Below the pieces are notes generated by a model. The model searched no databases. It was not told the origin of the DNA and saw only the letters and a list, made by a program, of their open reading frames with translations. Positions 4,714-62,239 of a stretch of DNA of 64,000 nt are shown here, in pieces. The stretch's first letter is position 1. The number at the start of each line of letters is the position of its first letter. The position numbers and the translations under genes are program-made. Source of the DNA: Bigelowiella natans CCMP2755 (taxonomy: Eukaryota > Protista > Cercozoa); the NCBI GenBank assembly GCA_000320545.1, contig ADNK01003018.1:15119-79118 (forward strand), read 5' to 3'.

Positions 4714-5607
4714 GCAGCAGTATATTATTGTACAAGGTGTGTTATTCCACCGAATACGAGGAATGAGTCAGTATATAATAAACAATAGTAGATTATTGTA
4801 AGTGGAGGAATGAGTCAGTATATAATAAACAATAGTAGATTATTGTAAGTACGTGAGGTCCAAAAGAAGAAGAAATGTGGTGGTGATGATGCTGCTGCTG
4901 CTAACGGTTAAAGATTAGCACATATATATCATAGAAAAAGGAAGAAGAGAAGAGTGAGAAAAATACTTGGACTGGCGCGAGATAGGAATGAGGATGATAT
5001 ATCTTAAAATGATGATCGATTATCAATAATGGCATTCTCTTCATATTCTCTTCATATGCTACTCTACTAAAGTAATGATGAGGATATATATCATCCAGAA
5101 TAGTATTCTCTTCATATACTCTGATGAAGTACTATGTTATCATCTAACCTGCTGATGTTAGACAAATATTACTACTCTTGTAGGTTACATCTATGTATGT
5201 GACGGGTACAATTATGTTGTGAGACGTATATCCTCCGACGAGAAAGTAAGTAAGTAATAATTTATATATATTATGTTCAATGGAGTGTCGCTACGGGTAG
5301 CAGCATTTTACTTCTGTATTTATTCTAGCTTTGTTGTTCTTCCTCCTCCTCCTCCTCCCCCTCATTGCTTCAAGGAGGTGTATGTATGTATGTATGTATG
5401 TATTATTCAAAGGGTTATAGACAATGTCTGCTTTCTTGATAACCCCCCCCTTAATTGTAATCATGTAGCCTTGTGTTAAATTATCTAATCCTTGTGCTAC
5501 TTACTTGTTCTTCTTCTTCATTGGTTGTAGGAAATTATCACCTTCGCTGGATCTGGATTGTATGGGCATAGAGATGGACCTGTAGAGTATATGATGGTAG
5601 AAGAGAC

Positions 5608-6730: not shown

Positions 6731-7958
6731 CCCGTAAAACACAGCAGCACTGCTAATATACAAGCAAGTGCATTTCTCACTACTTACTCTTTCGAATATG
6801 AGTAGGTATTCTCTGATACGCTCACCAATTGATGGTACATTCTATACAAGCTGTAGAAACTATGATAGAAGGTAATACAGCAGCAGCAGCATTAGCAGCA
6901 GATATGATAAGAAAGTCTTTGCAAGACAGCTGACACCGAAGAAGGGTGTAAAAGAAGAAGAAGAAGAAGAAGAAGAAGAAGAGAATATATTGCAGAGCTA
7001 TTGCCAATAAACACCCATTCCCTCCCCTCTTGTGGTAGTACATACCTGTAAAGTACAAGGAACAACTTGCAAGTAGTAGTGAGATTTTGATGAAACGAAT
7101 GATATACGTGATCATCATCATACGTCGCAAAGGATACGTAAGCTTAAGTTCCATTTTCTTCTTCCGGAAAAGTCTCAAGCATGGACGGTTGCAGGTAGTA
7201 GTAGTAGTAGTAGTAGTAGTAATAGTAACATGATGTAATAATCTTGGATTGTTGCTCTTGAATGTTCTCCATCAACCCAAGTGCGTGTGCTTTATCGTCG
7301 TTTTACTGTTTTCCCAACTTTTTGATGTTATAATAACAGAAACATACACACTAGCTACTACTTATATTGATACTACTACTACTACTTTTTGATGTTATAA
7401 TAACAGAAACATACACACTAGCTACTACTTATATTGATACTACTACTACTACTACTACTACTACCTCTTTTGCTACATAATTGATCTTTTTATCGGTAAT
7501 ATTATTCTTATTTCTTCTAGGTCAAAGCTTCCCGTTAGGTCATGTTGATGGGCATGGCCCTTTAGCATTATTTCGATCGGTAGGTACTGCTGCTGCTGCT
7601 GCTTTGATGGTAGTAGTAGTAGTAGTAGTAGTAGTAGTTGTTTCAATCTTCTTCATTTGTCGTGAGGAGGAGGAGGGGGAGGAGGAAAACAATCATCAAC
7701 CATCAGATACATATGAATTTTATATACTTATAAAAACAGCGATTTGGTGTAATAATATGACCCTCCCTCATGCTGCATTTATTCTCCTTTCTGTCTTAGG
7801 TAAGTGGAATGGCAATAGATCATTCTAATAACATTTATCTTTCTGATATTGGAAATAATGTGGTTCGAAGGATTAGCTCTGGTATTATACATGCTCTCAC
7901 ATCCAACTTGATGATATGTCGTTTCTTTGCATTATATACACTCTCACCCTCCCCCCCC

Positions 7959-8899: not shown

Positions 8900-10050
8900 C
8901 TACTAGCTCGAAATCAATCGTCTAGCATTTTCCACGATGAGGCAATATAGAGCAAGAATGTGGCGACATTGCCGCATATCACATTTTATCTAGGTATCAT
9001 AACATCTACTAGACTTTGAAACAAACTTCCTTGCGCTACTGGGAAAGTCCATCTACGTATTATATCTTGCCTTTTTCTGGCATCAGCTCACTGGCACGAG
9101 TACGTATCTCTGTATCCAAGCATGATCGATGCGTGACAGTATCCAGATGCTATGTGCACATTGCGTTGTTCATGCTGAGTACGGCCATGCTAGCATGTTT
9201 CAATACTTTTATGAGACCTTTGGCGATACGATCCACTGTAGGGTAAGCCGAGTAACATGCAGTCAACCAAATGGTTGGAAACTCCTGCTGCTGATCGAAT
9301 GATGTCACATGCGATGCAGTCAACCAAATACAATGGTTGGACCCCCCTACTGCTGCTGAATGTGGACGGCGTGTGTTGTAGCTAGCTTTATTTGCACAGC
9401 GTAGCAACTACATCAGGATGACCACATCGGTGGGATTTGTAAGACAGGCGTAATGAATCAAATTAAATTTGTTCAATGGTCATCCTCATATCTAGATATG
9501 TAGCTGTGCAATGCAACGGCTTTCTAGCTTTATTTTGGAGCATTCATTTGATTCATTGCTACACATCGATCCGTCTGATACGCTGAATGCAAATCTAGAA
9601 ATGCCCAATATGTAAGTACTAGCTAGTGCAATTGAAAATTTGAAATTCGCATGTACGTGACTACCGCTTACGCAACAAAACCACGGCGATTCACGTGCCA
9701 TGATGCGTGCTATATGCTAGCTAGTATCAATAAGAATGCATGATCGAGAGTATTGTCGTCCCGTGCGTACATGCATCATGCAAGAATAAACAGCTTATTC
9801 GACAAAACATGAACAGCAATGCTTGTGTCGGTCGTATCGCTGTGTAGTTTTACACGCTGGAACAACAGGTCGCACCGCGTTGTGATCATGGCGACGCAAA
9901 GATCCGAGGATGTGAAGAATATCGATGCATAGCAATCGCTCTTCCAGCATATACAATGATCCACTACTAGATTGAATGAATGTACAGTTGAAATGGAACA
10001 TGTGCTATTTTGAGTGTGCCTATTAGCATAGTCCCCACGAAATGACATAT
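8900..10050. other. Palindrome-rich (CTAG/GCATGC/TGCA), microsatellite-free intergenic block A between convergent 3' ends
   Basis: Contains catgctagcatg, actagctagtgca, atgctagctagta, gtacatgcatcatgca; no long simple repeats; lies between the NHL stop (8800) and the kinase 3' end (~10145). Confidence 0.7.
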
Positions 10051-14303: not shown

Positions 14304-17040
14304 GTATATCTACTATGATTCCAAGTGTTGTTGAGCGCCCTGGTATGTAGTTTGTAGAGTACAAACAGCAGCACCAATGAAAAACTACCGACTGTGCTAA
14401 TTTCAGTGCATTCTCTCTCTCTCTCTAACGCTCCTTCCCAAGGATATGAATCGAGCTAGACTCTCGCAGTGATGGATATGTAGAATAAAGTCATCATCAT
14501 TTACTTTGTGGCGAAGGGATGTCAAAATGAACATTTCTCCAAATATCTGATTCACCTGATGATACAATATGGTCATGGAACATCAAAGAATAAACACAAA
14601 TTCCAAGGAAGGTGAGGCCAAGCAATTGTGATATGGGAGAGGAATATATCCATATTCTGAACGCGCACAACATACTACGGACATAGCACACATTTGTTCA
14701 AATAGCAAAAACACAAACCATTGAAAAAATGATGAAGAAGCAAAGATGACATGTCCTACCCATTAGTAAGTACAAATGAAGGAAATAATCACATCGTACA
14801 ATCAATACACCCACCCTTTTAAGATCATCGATGCCTTTCTTTTCCATGATTTTGATGACAAGTCCTTGCCCGCCACTGACTCGTCGCGCAAACTACCAAC
14901 ATGACGCGTTATCGTTAGATATCAACCCCCATCCATGAATCATCTATCGTGTGTATTATCAGATTGGTATCTACATCATCATCGACTAATTGCTGGAGGT
15001 AGTGGTATGGTAGAATATACAATAACAGATTGAGTACTACCTTTACTTTTCCAAATGCTCCTTCCCCAATAGTTCTTCCGACGTTGTACCCTTTCACGTG
15101 AATTCTTGGAGATGATACTCGGCGGGCACTACTACTTTTGATGATCAGCAATAATAATGGAGATGGAAAAGAAGAAGGACAGGGAAAAATAAAAAGTAGT
15201 TGAAGTGAATGATGAAAGACAGACCATGATAGTGTATGATACGACATCAACAACAATTACTAAGACACATTTTTATAATGCTGGCAACTGGAATAGGTAT
15301 CTCTGAATCATCATCATCATCGTATTCCCCAAAATAATCCTTGATCTTCCTTCTATATCTTACGTATTCTTGATCTCTCCTCGCTCTCTTTTCGACGTTG
15401 AATACACGGAGGTAAGCAAGGATCTTAAAATAAGCAGAGCAGCAGCAGCAGCAGCAGCAGGAGGAGGAGGAGGAGTAGCAGACACGGAGCGAGAATGATG
15501 AGCTCAGTTGGATCATCATCAATTGTCACCACAAAAGAAGGGCATAATTTAGTTTGAGGTAAATCATCCTTCATTTAGCATAGTCAAAGCCAGAGGAATA
15601 AAATTTAGGAGGAGGAGGAGGAGGAGGAGGAGGAGGAAAGATATATGGCAGAGAGAAGAAGGGAGAAACAGAGAGAGACAGAGAGACAGAGAGAGAGATA
15701 GTTGCTATGACAGAGAGAGACAGAGAGACAGAGAGAGATAGTTGCTATGACTTTGGTTGATCCTGTTGATCCTGCGAGCACCCCGTTGATGGTATTGTTG
15801 TTGTCCTACTACTACTCAAAGTGCTACTCCTCCTCCGTGTTCCACGTGTAGATGATGATGATGGCCTTGGAGAAGGCTGCTGCGTTGTGGAGACCGTAGT
15901 ACCAGTAGTAGTAGTAGTAGCAGTACCAGTAGCAGTAGCACCGGCAGTGGTCGCAGCATTGATCGTACTACTACTACTACTACTACTAGTAGTAGTAGTA
16001 GTGATGGCAGTAGTACCAACAGCAGCTACGCTACTACCAGATCGTATTGCTGCTTCTGCTGTCCCTGAATCAAGTTCTTTTGATGATGAAAAAGTTTTCT
16101 CACCAAGAGTCCGAACAGATCGAGGAGATGGAGTATGTGGTAACATTGGTTCCGCCTAAGTGTCATTAAGAGATATTCAATAATGTGCTAACATTGAGAC
16201 ATGCAAAAACTCACGGAGTTACATCATTATATATCATCTTGGTTTTAACACCTTCACTCCCCGCAGTATTGAGCCTGACAACGGACGCAACAGATCTATG
16301 CTGCTTATGCATCCTGAAGACCGTACTTTTGTTATGCCTGACGCTGGTGTTTCAACAAGAAGATGATGATCTCTCGGCTGCGATTTGTTAATTCTCGGAA
16401 GCTCAAATGGAGAAGCGCTGTATATTCAAACAAGTCACATGAAGAAATCGCATGTAAGCTATGTATTCGGCCTCATTATATATTATAGATATTTTGTTCT
16501 TTGGGAACAAATTGTTTGAAGACCATTCGTGACTGTAAGCTACAGATTTGTTGTTAAAATTGTACGTAAATCTACATACATACTCTCCCTCTTTCACACA
16601 CACACACACGCACGCACACACATAAACATAAACATCTCCGTGGAAATAAACTTACAATTTATGAGTCGCAGTTTACAACATAATATCTAGCTATATAAAT
16701 ACACGTATATTGTTGTTTTTGTTGTGATAATTTATATGTGTTTACGTTCGAGACGAATTCCGATAGTGCTGATCCCTTCGATGGCTCATGTCTCTTCTGA
16801 GCTTTAGATAGATATATTGAAAAAAAAGAATTAAAAAGATGTTTGATGAGAAGCTGCTATTCACATCGAAATGTAGAGCCCACACATAATTTTCGAAGCG
16901 GTACGTAATAATGCTACTCGAGATAGAAAGAGATTTCATCAACAACCTCCTATTTTCCGGATCCTTCTCCTTTTGTTTGTTCTTCTTCTTAATCTAGTCT
17001 TTTGTTTTCCTGCTGCTGCTTTGTGAGAAGCAGAAGCCAT
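10145..17040 (-). CDS. CAMK-group Ser/Thr kinase (SNF1/AMPK/MARK-like), multi-exon, long low-complexity N-terminus; 3' end approximate
   Basis: Exons read YNVGRTIGEGAFGKVK (~15040-15090), LVIKIMEK (~14850), NVIQLYDV (~14160), VMEYAEGGEL (~13890), VIHRDLKLENILLD (~13090), NIKIVDFGLSERLLGDAKLESVCGTPLYMSPELMRGQKYDGSTDVWSLG (12762-12911), VVLYAMVCGFLPF (~12630). Likely ATG at 17040 (MASASHKAAAGKQKTRLRRR). Confidence 0.9.
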
Positions 17041-17623
17041 TCACAAAGAAACGAGGCTTTACACAAAGCCACCAATTATGAGTCACTACACCACAGGAGG
17101 GGCGAATAACATTAGAAAGATGTTTGCTTTTCTTATATTCAGATATAAATTAGACCGTCACCAAAGTAAATGGAAAAGCGTAATTGAAGCAGAATGTTGA
17201 AATATGTGTTGTCGTATGATGAAATATCCCTATCTTCTCAACACATAGCTGTTCATAATCGATGAGTTATTGAGTGAGTAGATCCAAGGTGTCATGTGAG
17301 GCAACGTTACGCAGCTGCTTTGACAGTTACGACAGCTGCAGGAATAGGAAGAAATGGGATGAAAATCAATCCTACGACAAGACCAATAATTCCTGTTCAA
17401 AGAAATGACTTGGAAATCAATGCTGCGACAAGACCAATGATTCCTACTTTTAAGACAAAAAAACAAAGAAAAACAAGTGGTCAATTCATTCAGGTAGCCG
17501 AGGCGACGGGATGGATGCACACACACACACACACACACACACACACCACAACGAGAGGATAGAGAGAGAGCTGTCCTCCCTTCCCCTCCTCCAGGCACGA
17601 TTCAATTATGCCGATTATGCCCT

Positions 17624-18255
17624 ATGCCCGCCCTTATGCATGCGTCACTGTTTTTTTCAGTGGAATTGGAAGATGTAAAAAGTAACCTGATAACATTGCA
17701 GATAGATGTTCCTGCGGACCCTGCAGAAAAAGCTAGCCGGCTCTCTGGCTTTAAGACGCCCGGGCCAAAACCTTCGTGTTGTCAGATGCATCCCAAAGTT
17801 GCGCCTGTTCAACGAAAAAAAACTGGACCAGGACACTACGGCAGCGAAGTCACTGGTAGCTAATAACATATTTCGCATCCTATTACACATGATATGAGCG
17901 CAATTACTAATTCCAGCCAGAGCACGTAGAACTCGATACACGGAGGAAAAAGGCACTATGGAGGTGTAGGCAGAGAGGATGGGTTGAGATAGATTTGCTA
18001 ATGGGTAACTGGGCATCAGAGGCTATACCGCGCATGAGCTCCGAAGAACTCGATCAACTTGAAGTCATCATTGCTCAGGTGTATGATAGTAATCATCAGC
18101 GAAGAAAGCAGATAGTGGGGACATCTTTGAAAACTACGAAACGATAGTAAATTAATGGTCTGCCTCTGGAACAAAGATGAAAGAAAGAAATACTGTTGTA
18201 TGGTGGATACTTCCTTCGCTATTCAAAAAGGGAGGGTATTGAATACAGAAGCACA

Positions 18256-18294
<39 letters not shown>

Positions 18295-18589: not shown

Positions 18590-19400
18590 AAGATGGATGC
18601 GCATGCTACTACCGTGCAGAAGTTAACTCGAATAACACGTACCATTTCCCCCCTTATCCCTTCTTTCACTTTCAGTAACATCCACTGCTACCGTGCTAGC
18701 GTGGTTCCAATAGTCGCCACTCCTTGTGCATGCACAAATCCAAAACATGATTAAGCAACTGCGCATCGCACGCTCGCTCCCTGTATTGGTCATGCATGCC
18801 ATGTGTTTTACTAATATTATGCACTGCGAGATGTGTCACAACTGCAGTCTCTCATCTGATCCGCTCGTGGATGGAAGGTTGAATAGGAGCAGCAACTTCG
18901 CGCAAAGAATCGAACGATTTTCAAACAACGCGCTTGCCTGCGGATCGTGCTTGTGCTAGCATAACGCATCGCATTAGCAAGAGCATGCATGCACGCGAAG
19001 CTGCAGTGCTGCAGTACATTACATCGCTGCGTGCATGCTAGCATGCTGCGAACAATGCGAAGATCGTCCTGCTATGTACAGTTGTGCGACACGAGCGTAT
19101 AGCTTTATGATAGACACAGTATAACGCCAGGAATTCCTGTCAATATTATAATTCTTTGACGCCAATGTTGCACATCTGTACATGCATACCTAGCTAGCTA
19201 GACGTACATTCTAGTGCACGATTTGGTAGATCAAGTGGACATAGGCTGGCGGGACAAGTGACGAGATCTCTCAACCTTTCGTCTGCTTGTGATCATCCGC
19301 TCAACAACCTACCTCATCATCCTTGAATAACTCGATCTAGTTTCCACCACATGATGATCATGTGTGCAAATGATCTCAAATGCATGCAAAACTTACACAT
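18590..19400. other. Palindrome-rich intergenic block B between convergent 3' ends
   Basis: gagcatgcatgcacgcg, gtgcatgctagcatgctgcg, cctagctagctagacgtac; lies between the SDHAF2 stop (18535) and the glycosyltransferase stop (19530). Confidence 0.7.
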
Positions 19401-19529: not shown

Positions 19530-22402
19530 CTAGCAAAGGAATTGTGTAGGTGTTAATACGCTTTCAGGGTTATCCCAACCCGCGGGCTCTTCATTTGCAC
19601 AACAATTTCCTGGACTTGGGTTGACCAAGGTAAGAAGACCGTTTACATTGTGTAGGTACTTCTTATGCATTTCGATGTTCCATTTAAGTTCATGCTCCAT
19701 GTAATACTGATATGCCCTCCAAGGCTCCTTCACAAAACGACCTACTTGAACAATCCCGTAGTGCAACATGTCATGATATCCAGAGTTGTGCCCGTAAGTC
19801 CAGCCCGTGAAGTGGAATGTTGCGTTTTTATTGAGGAAAAACTGAACTGTTGAGGATTGTAAGATGAGATCATTCCATCGATTGGTGAATATCTTGCCAG
19901 ATTCATCCACATAATTCAGAAAATTTTGAACGTCAGGCTGCAAGAATCTCTCAATATCAGCTACAAAGAAATTGTTGTAGAAACCGAACTGCTCTCCACA
20001 GTTCTCCCGTGTTAAATCATCTACACTTTCCTTGCTTTCACACAAATCAAGATACCATCCAGTTGTTCCTTCCATATGCTTTTTACTATAATTTCTTAAG
20101 TACGCCGAGTAGTCATCAGGCTTAGGCCATATAAGACCCGTCTCTCTCGCTATGTTACGATAACCATAGCCTATTCCATAATGTTCCATGAAGCCGAAGA
20201 GGTTGTAAGGAATCTCGCTAAGTAAGTAGGAGTCATCATCGAAACGAGAGACCCATCTGTATCCTAGTTTTTTCATCATAGGCCATATTCGAACAGCATA
20301 CAGTCTCATCATTTTCCTGTATCCCATGCCTTCTACACCTGCCCAGTGTTTTCGAGATTCCATGACTTTAGCAGGAGGATCCTTCCAATCTTCACCCTTC
20401 AAATGGTGGAACTTGATCTCAGGACGCCCAGCGATAACAGCTTTCTGAGCTTCGGCATCAAAATCTCCCTCGTGCATAACGATGACATCATCGTGTTCAC
20501 GATCATTATAGTGTTTGAACAACAGTCGCAAAGTATTATTGAGAATCTCCATTCCTGGTCGTCCGTAAGTTTGATGTTTTTTATTTTGTGCTAATATCAC
20601 AAATGCTCCTTTTCCTACAAAAATAATAAATAAGAATATACAAGTACGTAAGAAGAGAATGGAGGAGGACAACAACATAATTATAACAAACTAGGATGAC
20701 TACTACGCATATCATATTAATAAATAGAGTAGAATCTAGCACCTGTTTTAGGTTTTCCGATTTTCAACTTCTTCGCTTCTGCCTCTTTTGCAAACTCCGC
20801 GTTGACATGAGGACAGCACGTAGTGTCCCCAAGTTTGCCCCCACCGTAGTCTGGAAGCGGATCCGTATTACTACATTTGCCCTCTGATGTGGCCAGACTG
20901 TAGGTGTTGGGATCTGCGAATAACATCTTTCTCTTCTCGTCGGCTGATTCTAGATCTGTTATCTCACCATAAGCAGGCAATTCAGGGAAGTCACCACTGC
21001 GGAAGTACACACCGAACTCTGATACCGCAGACCAACACTTGACAAGGCTGTCTGTTTGAGCTAGCATGAGAGAATCCATCAATACATCTTGGCACTTCTG
21101 ATCTTTGGATACAGAATCATTGTAGAGAACGTTCGCATCCTGTCTGTTTGCCTCCAGCACTCCTGTATTATTCAAATATAAGTCACACAATCACGCATCA
21201 TCAGTTTCTATCTCACCGCTACTGATTACTACTACTACTAATACTAATACTTCACAAGGCGTTGAATGAATTTATATTTCTTGTAGAAATTACCAAGGAC
21301 ATCAGGGAATTCTTGCTTCATATCAGAGAGGTAGTTCTTATCATCTGTCGCTAAGAAGACTCTTGAATTCGGGCCGTTGAGCTGAACGTGTTCAGTGGCA
21401 AGTCTAATGTATGATTCAGGGTCTACACGGCCATGCACAAATTTATCCGTTCCACGCATGTGGAGACCAAGAATGGGCTTATTTACTTCTCTATTAAACA
21501 ACTGTGAGTACTTTGACTTAGCCATGTCAAGGAAAGATTTCTTGGCGTGAATGTATTCTTTGACGATCTTTGTTGCCTTCTTGCGGTTGTTATCCAGCCA
21601 CGTGTTTCCACATTCCCATTCACTATCACCAGGATATGGATATGCATGTGTAGCGTTTTTGTCATAGAAGGAGCTCATCAAGGAGTCTTGTGTGAGTTCC
21701 CATACATCCGCATCTTTGACACTTTTAGGATCAACACTAGAGATTGGTTCGAAGTATTTATGCCAGAAATCAGCAGAACTCTGTCCACCCTTAGCCGTAT
21801 CGTTGATGCATGAGTGATAGTGATGAGACTCGGGCATGTAAACAAATGGTGCCTTATCTCCAATTAGGCCCTCCCTCACAGCAAATTCGAGTTGATTGAG
21901 CACCATGTACGGGAACGTGAAGAACCCGCAACCCATCATAAACTTATAGTTGGCTCTGATACGAAAATGCTTGCTCCTGAGCATAGGCCTTAGCTTGTCA
22001 AGGTTCGACCCTACCTTAGTGCTTTCAAATCCTTTGAAACTGAAGTTAAAAGCTTGTGTATCTGCGACATCTAGGCTGTAGCAGTCTCCGGAGGCTTGGC
22101 ATGGTGCCTTAAAATCACAAGATTCTTGTGTTACCATGTCTGCAAGGCCACATTCACCAATACTTCGGCATCCTTTTGAATTGCACACTTTCGTTGGATC
22201 TTCCTTCTCAAAGAGACGTGGAGTAATAGAATATTGCTTGTATTCACGGGTGTCGAAAAGCCACGCCTTCATCATGAAGTTGTTGTACCTTAATAAGTGA
22301 TTTTAGGTTAGACGTAAGTCGAAGGGGCCGCTACATTGATTATTTAATCAGACGAATGACGACGACTGTGCTTCTCTCCATGCAGGAAGAATGCCATTAT
22401 TC

Positions 22403-42929: not shown

Positions 42930-44060
42930 TCGGACGTATGTGTATATATCCGTTGCAACACGTGTCGCTTTACTTGCATGAAACATTACATTGACAAGCT
43001 AATTTTCGATCACCACCAAAACAAACCTGCACACGATCGCGGGCGATGCAATCGCAGTCGCGGACTCAAATCTGGTTATCATCATCTGCGCACTGCTAGA
43101 CTGGGCCTCGCAATGATGGTTATTATTATTTCATACACAGCGACGAGCATGACGCTCTAGACGCTACCTTCGGTTTGATGCGCGCACATTCTAGCATTGC
43201 TGCGCATGCTGTAGCGCACAACTGTGCAGTGGCGGTCCATGCAGAGACAATAAGACGATGCAAGTTGTTGAGCGCTGTCGTAGCCGCTGCATTGCATAGC
43301 TACATGTGAGGATATGACCATTGAACGAATTTGATTGATCAGTTGCATCCGTCTTGTGCATGCTAGCATGCTAGCATGCATACTAGCATAGCTACATGGC
43401 ATCACGAAGCCATCGCCGCATGATCGCACATCTAGACATGACCACTTGGCGCTAGATGGCAGTAGCCACAACAGGCTAGCAGGCTGGCGCAGGCTGTGCA
43501 GCGCTTTTCCATGCTCACCTTTCCATCTAGCTAGCCATGCAGCGTCGTGCAGTCAGAAGGAAACCCATCTAGACATTGCATGCTAGCATGGTTAAGCCAA
43601 GCTAGTAAGCTAGCACCGTGTTTTTCCGCAACAACAATATGTGCCACGGCATCGGCATCATACCTACACTATGACACAAATGGCGTGCAGTGATAGGGTA
43701 GCGCAGGTGCAACACATTGCGCGCACAGCTGTGTGTCAATAATGCGCACGCTTTGCATGATGTGACACATGTGGCGCAGCAAGCAAACCCGCTCTAGCGC
43801 TTGATGACGAACATGTCTAGATATATGGACATATATGCAAGCTACGATGCGTAAGACAAAGGCAATAAATAAGCTCATGCATAGTACTAGGATGTAGTAC
43901 GTTACATCGTAGACAAGACGAGGGCGTGGTGGAACACACAGTTGATAATAACACATAATAAGCATCACGTTCTCCAAGAGAAAGTAAGCCACACAAACAT
44001 CCACGATTTAGGTGTTGATTGTGCCAGAACATGTCTTGACGGAAATGTTTTCAATATCGA
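42930..44060. other. Palindrome-rich intergenic block E between convergent 3' ends
   Basis: gcatgctagcatgctagcatgcatactagcatagcta (~43358-43394), catctagctagccatgc, gctagtaagctagc; lies between the stops at 42878 (+) and 44068 (-). Confidence 0.75.
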
Positions 44061-57479: not shown

Positions 57480-58450
57480 GGATTGCAGCGGAGTAAGTAG
57501 GCCATAGAAGCATGTTGTACAGCAGCTACATACAGTTGGTTGTAAGTAGTACACAATAAACGCAGTGTGCCCGTTGATGATGTCGTCACATAGATGTTGC
57601 TGCTGGTCGTTGAAATCATGCCTTGTATTGCCATGCCCTAACTAGACTTTGCCCACATCTAGACATACTAGCATAGCCGTAGCTAGGTAGATGCAACAAC
57701 CTCAAGCTCTGACTAGCTGTGTGCCTGCATGTGCAGATCGATCATTCTGTCGGTTGCGTTGAAATTGTTTCACTTCCTAACAACAATGGTCAACTAGCCG
57801 CATTCACATGCGTCAACGTGCTTGTCTTGTTGTGAAAAATTGGTGTCGTAGCTTCTCACATCTCGCGCTGACCCCACTGCTTAGACTGATGTCATCTAGC
57901 TAGCTAGACGTCTCTAGCTAGCGCTCACGCACGCTAGCACGTACCAATCTGGCAATTCCAAAATTGTGAGCAATTTGACACAGCATCAGCCACGCACGTC
58001 TGCACGTTTCACAATGCGCATTGTTGTTCCATCGTGAACAACGTGTTCTGGCGTTCCAGTCTGGCAGTGTTGCGGACAAACACCAACGAACACTGGAACG
58101 TGACACTTTGCTGGCTGCACAGCTCCAGACTGGCTGCAGAGCTGCGTGCGTGCACAGTGCGTGCAAGCCAACCTGTCTTGCTTGTTCAGCTGTTGTCATG
58201 TCTGCATCAGGCCGCCAATTTCATCACGAACGATGTGGGTGGGATGTTCTGCTAGGAATGGCGCACTTCGAACTCATTGTCAATGAAACAATGAAACAAC
58301 AATGATGAACCACACTTCCAAAATGTTGCAAGACACTTGCAGTGTGCGAAACGCAGCCTAGCAGTGCCTCGAATGAACCAGCATTGTCACCTTCACATGG
58401 CGTGTGAGGACACTTCAACGTCGTCTGTGTTGCTCACCTGTTGAGGTTAG
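57480..58450. other. Palindrome-rich intergenic block F downstream of the channel gene
   Basis: catctagctagctagacgtctctagctagcgctcacgcacgctagcacgtac (57893-57944), gcgtgcgtgcacagtgcgtgca; no microsatellites. Confidence 0.7.
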
Positions 58451-58899
58451 AATCCTATGTAAATTATGCTGGAAATGGCCTGCATTTTGTTAAATGTGCA
58501 CAATTATCGTCAAAAATGCACGGATTTTGATGGCAATCGTTCATGCGACACATCTAGCCGTTGAAGAAAGTGCAGATATTGATGGAGTTTCTGTTGAACG
58601 ACATGATAATTTCCTCCTTTTATTGAAAAAACAGCTTATTTTCAAAGTTCGAAATTCACTTCCACTGCCCCCACCTGGGAGACATGTCCACCGGTGCTGT
58701 TTTGTTCTGTTGTCCCCCCTCCTTCTTGCGGTGAATCTATGCACATGTCTGTACAGATACACATATCTAATAAATACGCTAAGAGGAAAAACCGATGATT
58801 ATGCATGCTTTCTTACTTAGACGAGCCGAAGCAAGTTAGTAGGCTAAGACCAGGGAGGAAGAAGAACATGAAGAAGAAGAGGCTTTATGCAGAACACAG

Positions 58900-58998
58900 A
58901 ATGCGACGAGGAGGTTTTCTTTCTAAATATACAGAAAATGTGTTGTTGATAATGCGACGAGGAGGTTTTCTTTCTAAACATACAGAAATTGTGTTGAT
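58900..58998 (+). repeat. ~51-bp tandem duplication upstream of the MAP3K-like gene
   Basis: aatgcgacgaggaggttttctttctaaa(t/c)atacagaaa..gtgttg twice. Confidence 0.85.
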
Positions 58999-61800: not shown

Positions 61801-61841
<41 letters not shown>

Positions 61842-62239
61842 TATATATACCAGAAAAGAAGACATTCAAATCTTCATGGATCTTGTTGCGGGTGGGCAGT
61901 CGATAAGCTCGGTGCGGATATGATATGATATGCACAAACATACACACACACACGCATAATATAACAAGAAAAAGAATGATGGATAGTCGTGGAAGTACTG
62001 AGTAGGTGTAACGATGATGCACGATTATGGGCTAATTAGTTGTAGAAATGACGTGTTGTTGTCAGACTCGGAATATAGGATTTGTATGTGGTATTGAAAT
62101 AGGAGGAGTAGTACTTACAAAGCATAATGAGGAGAGTAGTAGAAGTAGTAGTAGTGAGTCATCATGATAGTATTTTCTGCCTTCCATCATCATCTATTCC
62201 CTTTTGTCAAGAATAATGGCGAGGAGGAAGTAGTATTTA

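Follow-up and report, generated by a model that had tools for sequence, protein, structure and literature searches.

What are the six odd blocks of DNA in this 64-kb window (the window being the whole stretch analyzed), and why do they lie where genes end? The sequence-only reading of the window held that the blocks share composition rather than a transposon sequence, and proposed a strand-symmetric signal at convergent gene ends, such as a bidirectional terminator, a cruciform or Z-DNA sink for supercoils, or a target of base modification. We examined the composition and position of the blocks, searched them for homology with each other and with known elements, and weighed the processes that might have produced them.

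Composition and position of the six blocks

The six blocks (B1 to B6) are indeed compositionally distinct and poor in microsatellites, which occupy 67 of their 5011 bases compared with 13.2% of the rest of the window. Composition scores were computed in 425 sliding windows; 23 passed either score, and all 23 lay inside the blocks. The clearest dinucleotide shifts were a loss of CC/GG (rho 0.55 in the blocks vs. 0.99) and a gain of GpC (1.61 vs. 0.96). TpG/CpA was also enriched (rho 1.52) and CpG was higher in the blocks than outside them (0.94 vs. 0.73), while TC and CT were not raised and TpA, taken over whole blocks, was close to background (0.86 vs. 0.88) and hence not depleted. The alternating purine-pyrimidine runs noted earlier were borne out (alternation of 0.604 in the blocks vs. 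0.495), and the probability that a purine is G was elevated after T, except where G comes next.

The earlier impression that short palindromic words are dense holds for some words and fails for others. CTAG occurred 61 times in the blocks (13.5 ± 3.6 in 300 dinucleotide shuffles), GCTAGC 16 times (1.9 in shuffles) and CATG 72 times (52.8), and a by-eye count of 17 CTAG in 43150-43900 was confirmed; CGCG (15 vs. 20.9), GTAC (21 vs. 17.1) and TGCA (77 vs. 72.6), however, did not exceed the dinucleotide shuffles. TTAA was rare (4 vs. 15.3 in dinucleotide shuffles) and CCGG was absent from all six blocks. CTAG density ranged from 2.8 to 16.3 per kb, with no regular spacing other than periods of 4 and 8, and B4 is CC-poor and alternating yet has a single CTAG. 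Tandem 4-mers (75 vs. 24-44) and 8-mers (12 vs. ≤0.4) exceeded Markov nulls, as did perfect palindromes of at least 14 bp (8 vs. about 1 expected), the longest of which is 24 bp. Twenty-six 12-mers were common to at least two blocks (5.1 ± 3.1 in an order-3 Markov null), and no motif of at least 9 bp was common to all six.

Several simple origins were rejected. None of the 47 block ORFs had a Pfam match above cut-off, which disposes of coding relics. A structured RNA was rejected because no Rfam match reached the gathering threshold, either in the blocks or in the two metagenome loci described below (L001 and L002), and because folding was no better than that of shuffled sequences. A viral origin was rejected after viral contigs, scanned both for the pattern and for proteins, gave no match; a prokaryote genome scan gave none either. 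A bacterial promoter and terminator scan of the blocks stayed near shuffle level and is not relevant here. The available text of a giant-virus paper for the chlorarachniophyte group names TGCA as a motif of viral methylation but leaves CTAG unmentioned (PMC13196603), and we draw nothing from it. No published description of the blocks, of the LINE treated below, or of chlorarachniophyte nuclear methylation contexts was found in a literature search whose coverage left out most subscription journals.

The window has a GC content of 39% and its genes are interrupted by microsatellite-rich introns; genome values of 45% for Bigelowiella natans and 27% for Amorphochlora amoebiformis are given in the available text of PMC12730881. 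The gene map was built partly by eye, from ORF inspection and Pfam domains, with all terminal exons placed by inspection only, as were both sides of B3 and B4 and the right side of B6. By Pfam, the plus-strand genes to the left of B1, B2, B5 and B6 carry NHL, Sdh5, RING and ion-channel domains, and the minus-strand genes to the right of B1, B2 and B5 carry kinase, GT15 and PDZ/C2 domains. B1 (8900-10050) thus lies between an NHL-repeat gene (stop 8781) and a kinase gene (stop about 10254); B2 (18590-19400), recognized by composition only, between Sdh5 (stop 18535) and a GT15 glycosyltransferase (stop 19530); and B5 (42930-44060) between a RING gene (stop 42878) and a PDZ-domain gene (stop about 44068), with the C2 domain further along the minus strand. 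B3 (31440-32100), also recognized by composition only, and B4 (36365-36650), likewise a compositional block, occupy inferred convergent gaps, with stops at 31280 (plus) and about 32250 (minus) for B3 and at 36364 (plus) and about 36731 (minus) for B4. B6 (57480-58450) follows an ion-channel gene (Ion_trans, stop 57298) and precedes a minus-strand gene that by eye ends at about 58642, with a plus-strand kinase further to the right; if that small minus-strand gene is not real, B6 lies in a tandem gap. The glycosyltransferase exon has its best match in Bigelowiella natans (58%), which makes the window chlorarachniophyte-like though distinct from that sequence. As a side observation, a fucosyltransferase-like domain (a weak FUT8 match) and the GT15 domain seemingly belong to one gene at 19530-22302 on the minus strand.

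All six blocks begin less than 200 bp from a plus-strand stop, as had been claimed, the stops being placed by inspection. The claim that four blocks fill convergent gaps was right in kind and too low in number: the signature is present in six of six convergent gaps, three of them with flanks placed by ORF inspection (both sides of B3 and B4, the right side of B6), and in none of six divergent gaps (Fisher p 0.002, the gene map being in part inferred). Convergent gaps have an alternation of 0.58, CC of 0.59, GpC of 1.56 and 9.7 CTAG per kb, compared with 0.46, 1.10, 0.92 and 1.8 per kb in divergent gaps. The divergent gap chosen first, 15115-15260, probably lies within the kinase gene; 16900-17600 was used in its place and also lacks the signature. 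Gene orientation appears to alternate strictly, so that the 64 kb contain six convergent gaps and no confidently identified tandem gap. Two other divergent gaps deserve mention, one at 34360-35014 with 8.9 CTAG per kb and none of the other block features, and one containing a U6 snRNA gene at 38288-38399 (Rfam RF00026, 94.8 bits).

LINE 3′ ends in the blocks

The sequence-only reading saw no long homology between blocks. An all-vs-all comparison, together with the 12-mers shared in excess, contradicts this: B1 9461-9521 aligns with B5 43336-43282 at 77% over 61 bp (E 2e-7). A search with a 24-nt pattern taken from this alignment led to two metagenome loci, L001 and L002. L001 is a full two-ORF non-LTR retrotransposon with an ORF1 of 489 aa, for which there is no Pfam match, and an ORF2 of 1160 codons that matches PF14529 (Exo_endo_phos_2, 1.1e-17) and PF00078 (RVT_1, 2.4e-16) and ends, by eye, in a Cys/His knuckle (CxxC...HxxxC); zf-RVT falls below cut-off in the relative P0135. 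With endonuclease and reverse transcriptase in ORF2, an ORF1 upstream and a C-terminal knuckle, L001 is an APE-type LINE. Its protein cluster has 12 members, among them Bigna1/68657, a 173-aa C-terminal fragment from B. natans.

The unit common to B1 and B5 (~85 bp) corresponds to the final 18 codons of ORF2 plus some 30 nt of 3′ UTR, and its folding relative to shuffles (z +1.2 to -2.3 over nine strands) is unexceptional. It encodes SAVAAALHSYIRMTI, where a 50%-identical relative has SAVAAIINSYIRSTI; because the peptide is conserved in that relative, the unit is element sequence and not flank. Beyond this core, 188 nt of L001 contain 58 CTAG per kb, the last 700 nt of the LINE hold 13 CTAG, one TTAA and one CCGG, and the tail includes AATAAA. 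Aligned copies diverge about 30 nt past the stop without a common tail, and a search that was not systematic identified no target-site duplications. Among 19 relatives of the ORF2 C-terminus, six have their match confined to its last ~80 residues, the pattern to be expected if these were truncated copies.

In L002, the gap that follows an RCC1 gene on its 3′ side contains three LINE copies, and one of them reaches ~230 nt further into ORF2. When L002 was searched for homology to place its host, the best identities stayed below 40%. Two of its LINE 3′ ends (2128-2610 and 2809-2858) stand back to back and inverted, mimicking terminal inverted repeats, with a third partial copy in addition. A MITE reading of this pair was rejected, as the pair codes for the C-terminus of ORF2 and LINE sequence continues in one copy for the ~230 nt mentioned; the window copies are unpaired and so lack MITE-type inverted termini.

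An nhmmer profile was built from L001 and L002 only, without the window copies (null maximum 11.2 bits). Searched against the 64 kb, it matched B5 (E 7.6e-14) and B1 (E 7.8e-13); the sole further match below E 0.9 was a weak second copy in B1, and the introns of the window had no match to the LINE core. In B5 the core lies on the plus strand at 43269-43357 (47.7 bits; 79% over 75 bp to L001) and comprises the last ORF2 codons, reading LLSAVVAAALHSYM, and the first ~30 nt of the 3′ UTR. A probable colinear continuation into the CTAG-rich tail follows at 43358-43492 on the same strand, with marginal significance (anchored score 43.5; p 0.01 against an order-4 null, 0.02-0.06 against a bootstrap null), and holds a 24-bp palindrome (43357-43380). 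Two plus-strand 14-mers in B5 are identical to the LINE, where null means are 0.07-0.15: 43091-43104 matches the tail (L001 148-135) and is possibly a second old copy, its gapped extension scoring low, and 43707-43720 matches the zinc-knuckle coding region (L001 510-497) without extension. In B1 a second copy of the core, with a ~10-bp palindromic insertion, lies on the minus strand at 9438-9521 (44.5 bits). The word AATAAAGCTAGC of the LINE tail recurs exactly at 9381-9392 (minus strand) and with one mismatch at 9523-9534, and a degenerate, inverted partial core at 9392-9424, within 9381-9424, is weak (E 0.025; 10.8 bits vs. the null maximum of 11.2). Elsewhere in B1, 9257-9362 is a ~50-bp tandem duplication (78%) with a short hairpin in each unit.

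A minus-strand segment of B6, 57854-57955, matches the CTAG-rich 188 nt beyond ORF2 (16.0 bits vs. a null maximum of 6.9; score 63.7, p ≤ 0.005 by bootstrap). This match is driven largely by a 17-mer around (CTAG)3 and exceeds all Markov nulls, whereas the ORF part is not above the null. By homology, then, B1 and B5 contain short LINE 3′ ends, and B6 probably holds a match to the LINE tail. The sequence-only reading had named alignment to a transposon family as evidence against its proposal, and such alignment is what we find for B1 and B5 and probably for B6; its view that the blocks have a composition in common stands, and its view that no transposon sequence underlies them fails for B1 and B5 and probably B6. 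B2, B3 and B4 had no significant DNA or protein match to this LINE family, the best alignment in B3 scoring 87 against a null mean of 65-70. Since these three lack a transposon match, part of the block signature may be of other origin. Firm LINE matches cover 173 of the 5011 block bases and all LINE-like sequence at most 556. An inverted repeat with 25-nt arms, 80% complementary around a 60-nt spacer, was seen in B2 at 19074-19183.

Shared texture and loss of TpA

The blocks resemble the LINE tail beyond what can be aligned. With matches masked, their trinucleotide spectrum correlates with that of the last 700 nt of the LINE at r 0.83, where the 5′ part of the LINE gives 0.13, introns give 0.19 and divergent gaps -0.10; B2 to B4 alone give r 0.73. 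Trained on L001 1-500 together with the gap of L002, and set against the window background, an order-2 model separated 34 block windows from 391 others with an AUC of 0.97. These comparisons rest on one window and two short metagenome loci. In the L002 gap, the DNA outside the LINE copies shares this spectrum (r 0.78-0.83), a likeness that fits older relics and equally fits a regional process.

A process of base change known from this lineage is relevant here. Hypermutation of TpA to TpG/CpA is described for viral inserts of B. natans, and low-TpA coding sequences there include reverse transcriptase and endonuclease domains, according to the available text of a preprint (bioRxiv 10.64898/2026.01.13.699255). 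In B6 the tract 57940-58454 is nearly free of TpA (rho 0.13, with TpG/CpA at 1.85; none at all in 58001-58250) and passes the rho thresholds as given in that text, though it is a 0.5-kb tract where the preprint used 1-kb windows. L001 189-700 passes as well (TpA 0.29, TpG/CpA 1.76), whereas whole convergent gaps do not (0.84 and 1.46). The B6 tract has no LINE ORF2 match, no Pfam match above cut-off and a best Atlas score of 0.75; a by-eye likeness to LINE ORF2 was rejected (BLASTP E 0.18).

In the open ORF2 of the LINE, silent-site TpA is lost only in the last ~420 codons. Codon junctions in this part (L001 219-1480) are T|A in 8 cases vs. C|A in 70, compared with 51 vs. 88 upstream (L001 1480-3698; p 1.5e-5 for the difference), and NTA/NTG codons number 9/41 in the last 420 codons vs. 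24/24 upstream (p 0.001). The pattern looks as if a TpA mutator had tracked how many copies of the truncated ends exist. In two genes of the window the last exon retains its TpA (T|A 22 vs. C|A 26 in one, 15 vs. 9 in the other). The RCC1 gene of L002 has 6 vs. 29 in its last exon and 16 vs. 25 in the preceding one, a weaker loss seen at junctions only. Among five aligned LINE copies, TpA-type changes account for 4 of 34 variable columns, and the terminal dinucleotides of copies show TA/TG/CA triads. The window resembles the preprint's case in lineage and in combining TpA loss with TpG/CpA gain, in B6 57940-58454 and in the 3′ third of the LINE, but the preprint shows the hypermutation for large viral inserts, and its available text describes neither a 5′-3′ gradient in a LINE nor a link to convergent gaps. 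The TpA loss in the 3′ third of the LINE bears on how the B. natans TpA mutator chooses its targets, and it predicts copy-number dependence. Interrupted (TA)n arrays with TG and CA, giving TGCA and TGTACA words, also occur at 61806-61850 and 18251-18292 of the window and at L002 3157-3200.

TpA hypermutation leaves CTAG, the loss of CC and the alternation unexplained. Nearest-neighbor transition models (TpA>TpG plus CC>CT, or a full 12-factor version) predicted 25-50 of 122 CTAG; the 'CTAG trap' of the two-term model was rejected at 25-27, and ad hoc CTAG-specific terms raised the prediction to only 47-63. Since transition models fail on both the CTAG excess and the alternation, imported words and slippage are needed.

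Origin of the blocks

We consider it somewhat more probable than not (roughly 0.55) that the blocks are piles of 5′-truncated LINE ends that accumulated and decayed in convergent gaps. Target-primed reverse transcription would begin at the 3′ end of the RNA and mostly abort early, leaving stubs of 85-300 nt that insert, or persist, in convergent gaps only. The words CTAG, TAGC and CATG would arrive with the tail and then grow in number as 4- and 8-bp units underwent slippage; hypermutation of TpA to TpG/CpA of the kind reported in B. natans would add TG and CA and leave TpA-free tracts; and older copies would lose alignability while retaining the texture. Targeted insertion, whether into termination zones or into older copies, seems likelier than survival alone, because introns have neither copies nor signature.

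Remains of retrotransposon ends are commonplace between genes. Their strict confinement to convergent gaps is less so; with so much intron space available, it hints that the LINE is directed to termination zones. The blocks are a real feature with a partial explanation, and in kind they are mostly ordinary, behaving like 5′-truncated LINE debris; the less usual points are the strict placement and the TpA gradient of the LINE. Truncated APE-type LINE copies elsewhere likewise come from a source with ORF1, endonuclease, reverse transcriptase and a C-terminal Cys/His knuckle, and share a 3′ end while varying in length, but the stubs here are very short and, in the window, limited to convergent gaps. 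The SIDER1 and SIDER2 elements of Leishmania, in the available text of PMC2323293, are also short, degenerate non-LTR relics of a protist, enriched 3′ of coding regions; they are recognized by a 79-bp trypanosomatid signature, and SIDER2 destabilizes mRNA. They provide a precedent for co-option 3′ of genes, and differ in that the window relics keep the 3′ end of ORF2 and are known here from sequence alone. The Zepp LINEs of Coccomyxa and Chlorella, as the available text of PMC3446292 presents them, resemble our case in that copies pile up at restricted sites, and in B1 a tail word is followed directly by a core. Zepp, however, forms clusters of 1.5-42 kb, one per chromosome, whereas the window has six blocks of 0.3-1.2 kb in 64 kb rather than a single large nested cluster; nesting of copies within the blocks is only suggested.

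A regional mutation regime may instead act on all convergent-gap DNA, for example through silencing caused by overlapping read-through RNA, with LINE tails sharing or having captured its texture. We regard this as unlikely, if the best placed of the alternatives. It would account for the signature in all six gaps, with or without a LINE piece, for the non-LINE DNA of the L002 gap and for the drop in T|A junctions in the RCC1 last exon. It also gains from the copies in B1 and L002 (L002a and L002b), which are not colinear into the CTAG-rich 188 nt of L001 (scores of 35, 23 and 23 vs. a null mean of 27); since these copies stop short, the 188 nt may belong to the flank and not to the UTR, and cause and effect may run the other way. 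Yet transition models yield at most 50 of the 122 CTAG, alternation is unaffected by transitions, and the last exons of the two window genes keep their TpA.

It is more doubtful that the blocks are candidate two-way termination or boundary signals, whether LINE ends were co-opted for the role or the LINE evolved a host signal at its own 3′ end. The split of 6/6 convergent vs. 0/6 divergent gaps on the partly inferred map (Fisher p 0.002), the block starts near stops, the strand-symmetric words, the AATAAA in the LINE tail and the like texture of the L002 3′ gap all suit such a signal. Against it, no motif of at least 9 bp recurs in all six blocks, CTAG density varies (2.8-16.3 per kb) and reaches 8.9 per kb in the divergent gap at 34360-35014, CTAG spacing is irregular beyond 4 and 8, and AATAAA is missing from B2 and lacks a symmetrical arrangement. 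The blocks could both stem from a LINE and act as terminators. One speculative combination, to which we give similarly little credence, has the LINE homing to Pol II termination zones and a host A-to-G mutator, resembling RIP in reverse and scaled by copy number, stripping TpA from the multi-copy 3′ third, so that the CTAG/TGCA-rich relics serve as two-way terminators.

Methylation of CpG or CC followed by deamination, turning CCGG into CTAG and CGCG into CATG or TGCA, would fit the absence of CCGG and the CC/GG rho of 0.55, but we think it very improbable, as TC and CT are not raised and a model with CpG and CC terms still gives 26-33 of 122 CTAG; CpG decay as the source of the block words was rejected, CpG being higher in the blocks (0.94 vs. 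0.73 outside). Least credible is the proposed cruciform or Z-DNA sink for supercoils, which the alternation of 0.60 and the eight perfect palindromes would favor, because the longest palindrome is just 24 bp, the common unit folds no better than shuffles, and converging polymerases produce positive supercoils while cruciforms and Z-DNA require negative supercoiling.

Outside the blocks, recent-looking direct duplications of 45-90 bp were observed at 1170-1340, 4760-4850, 7320-7440, 32760-32880 and 58900-58996.
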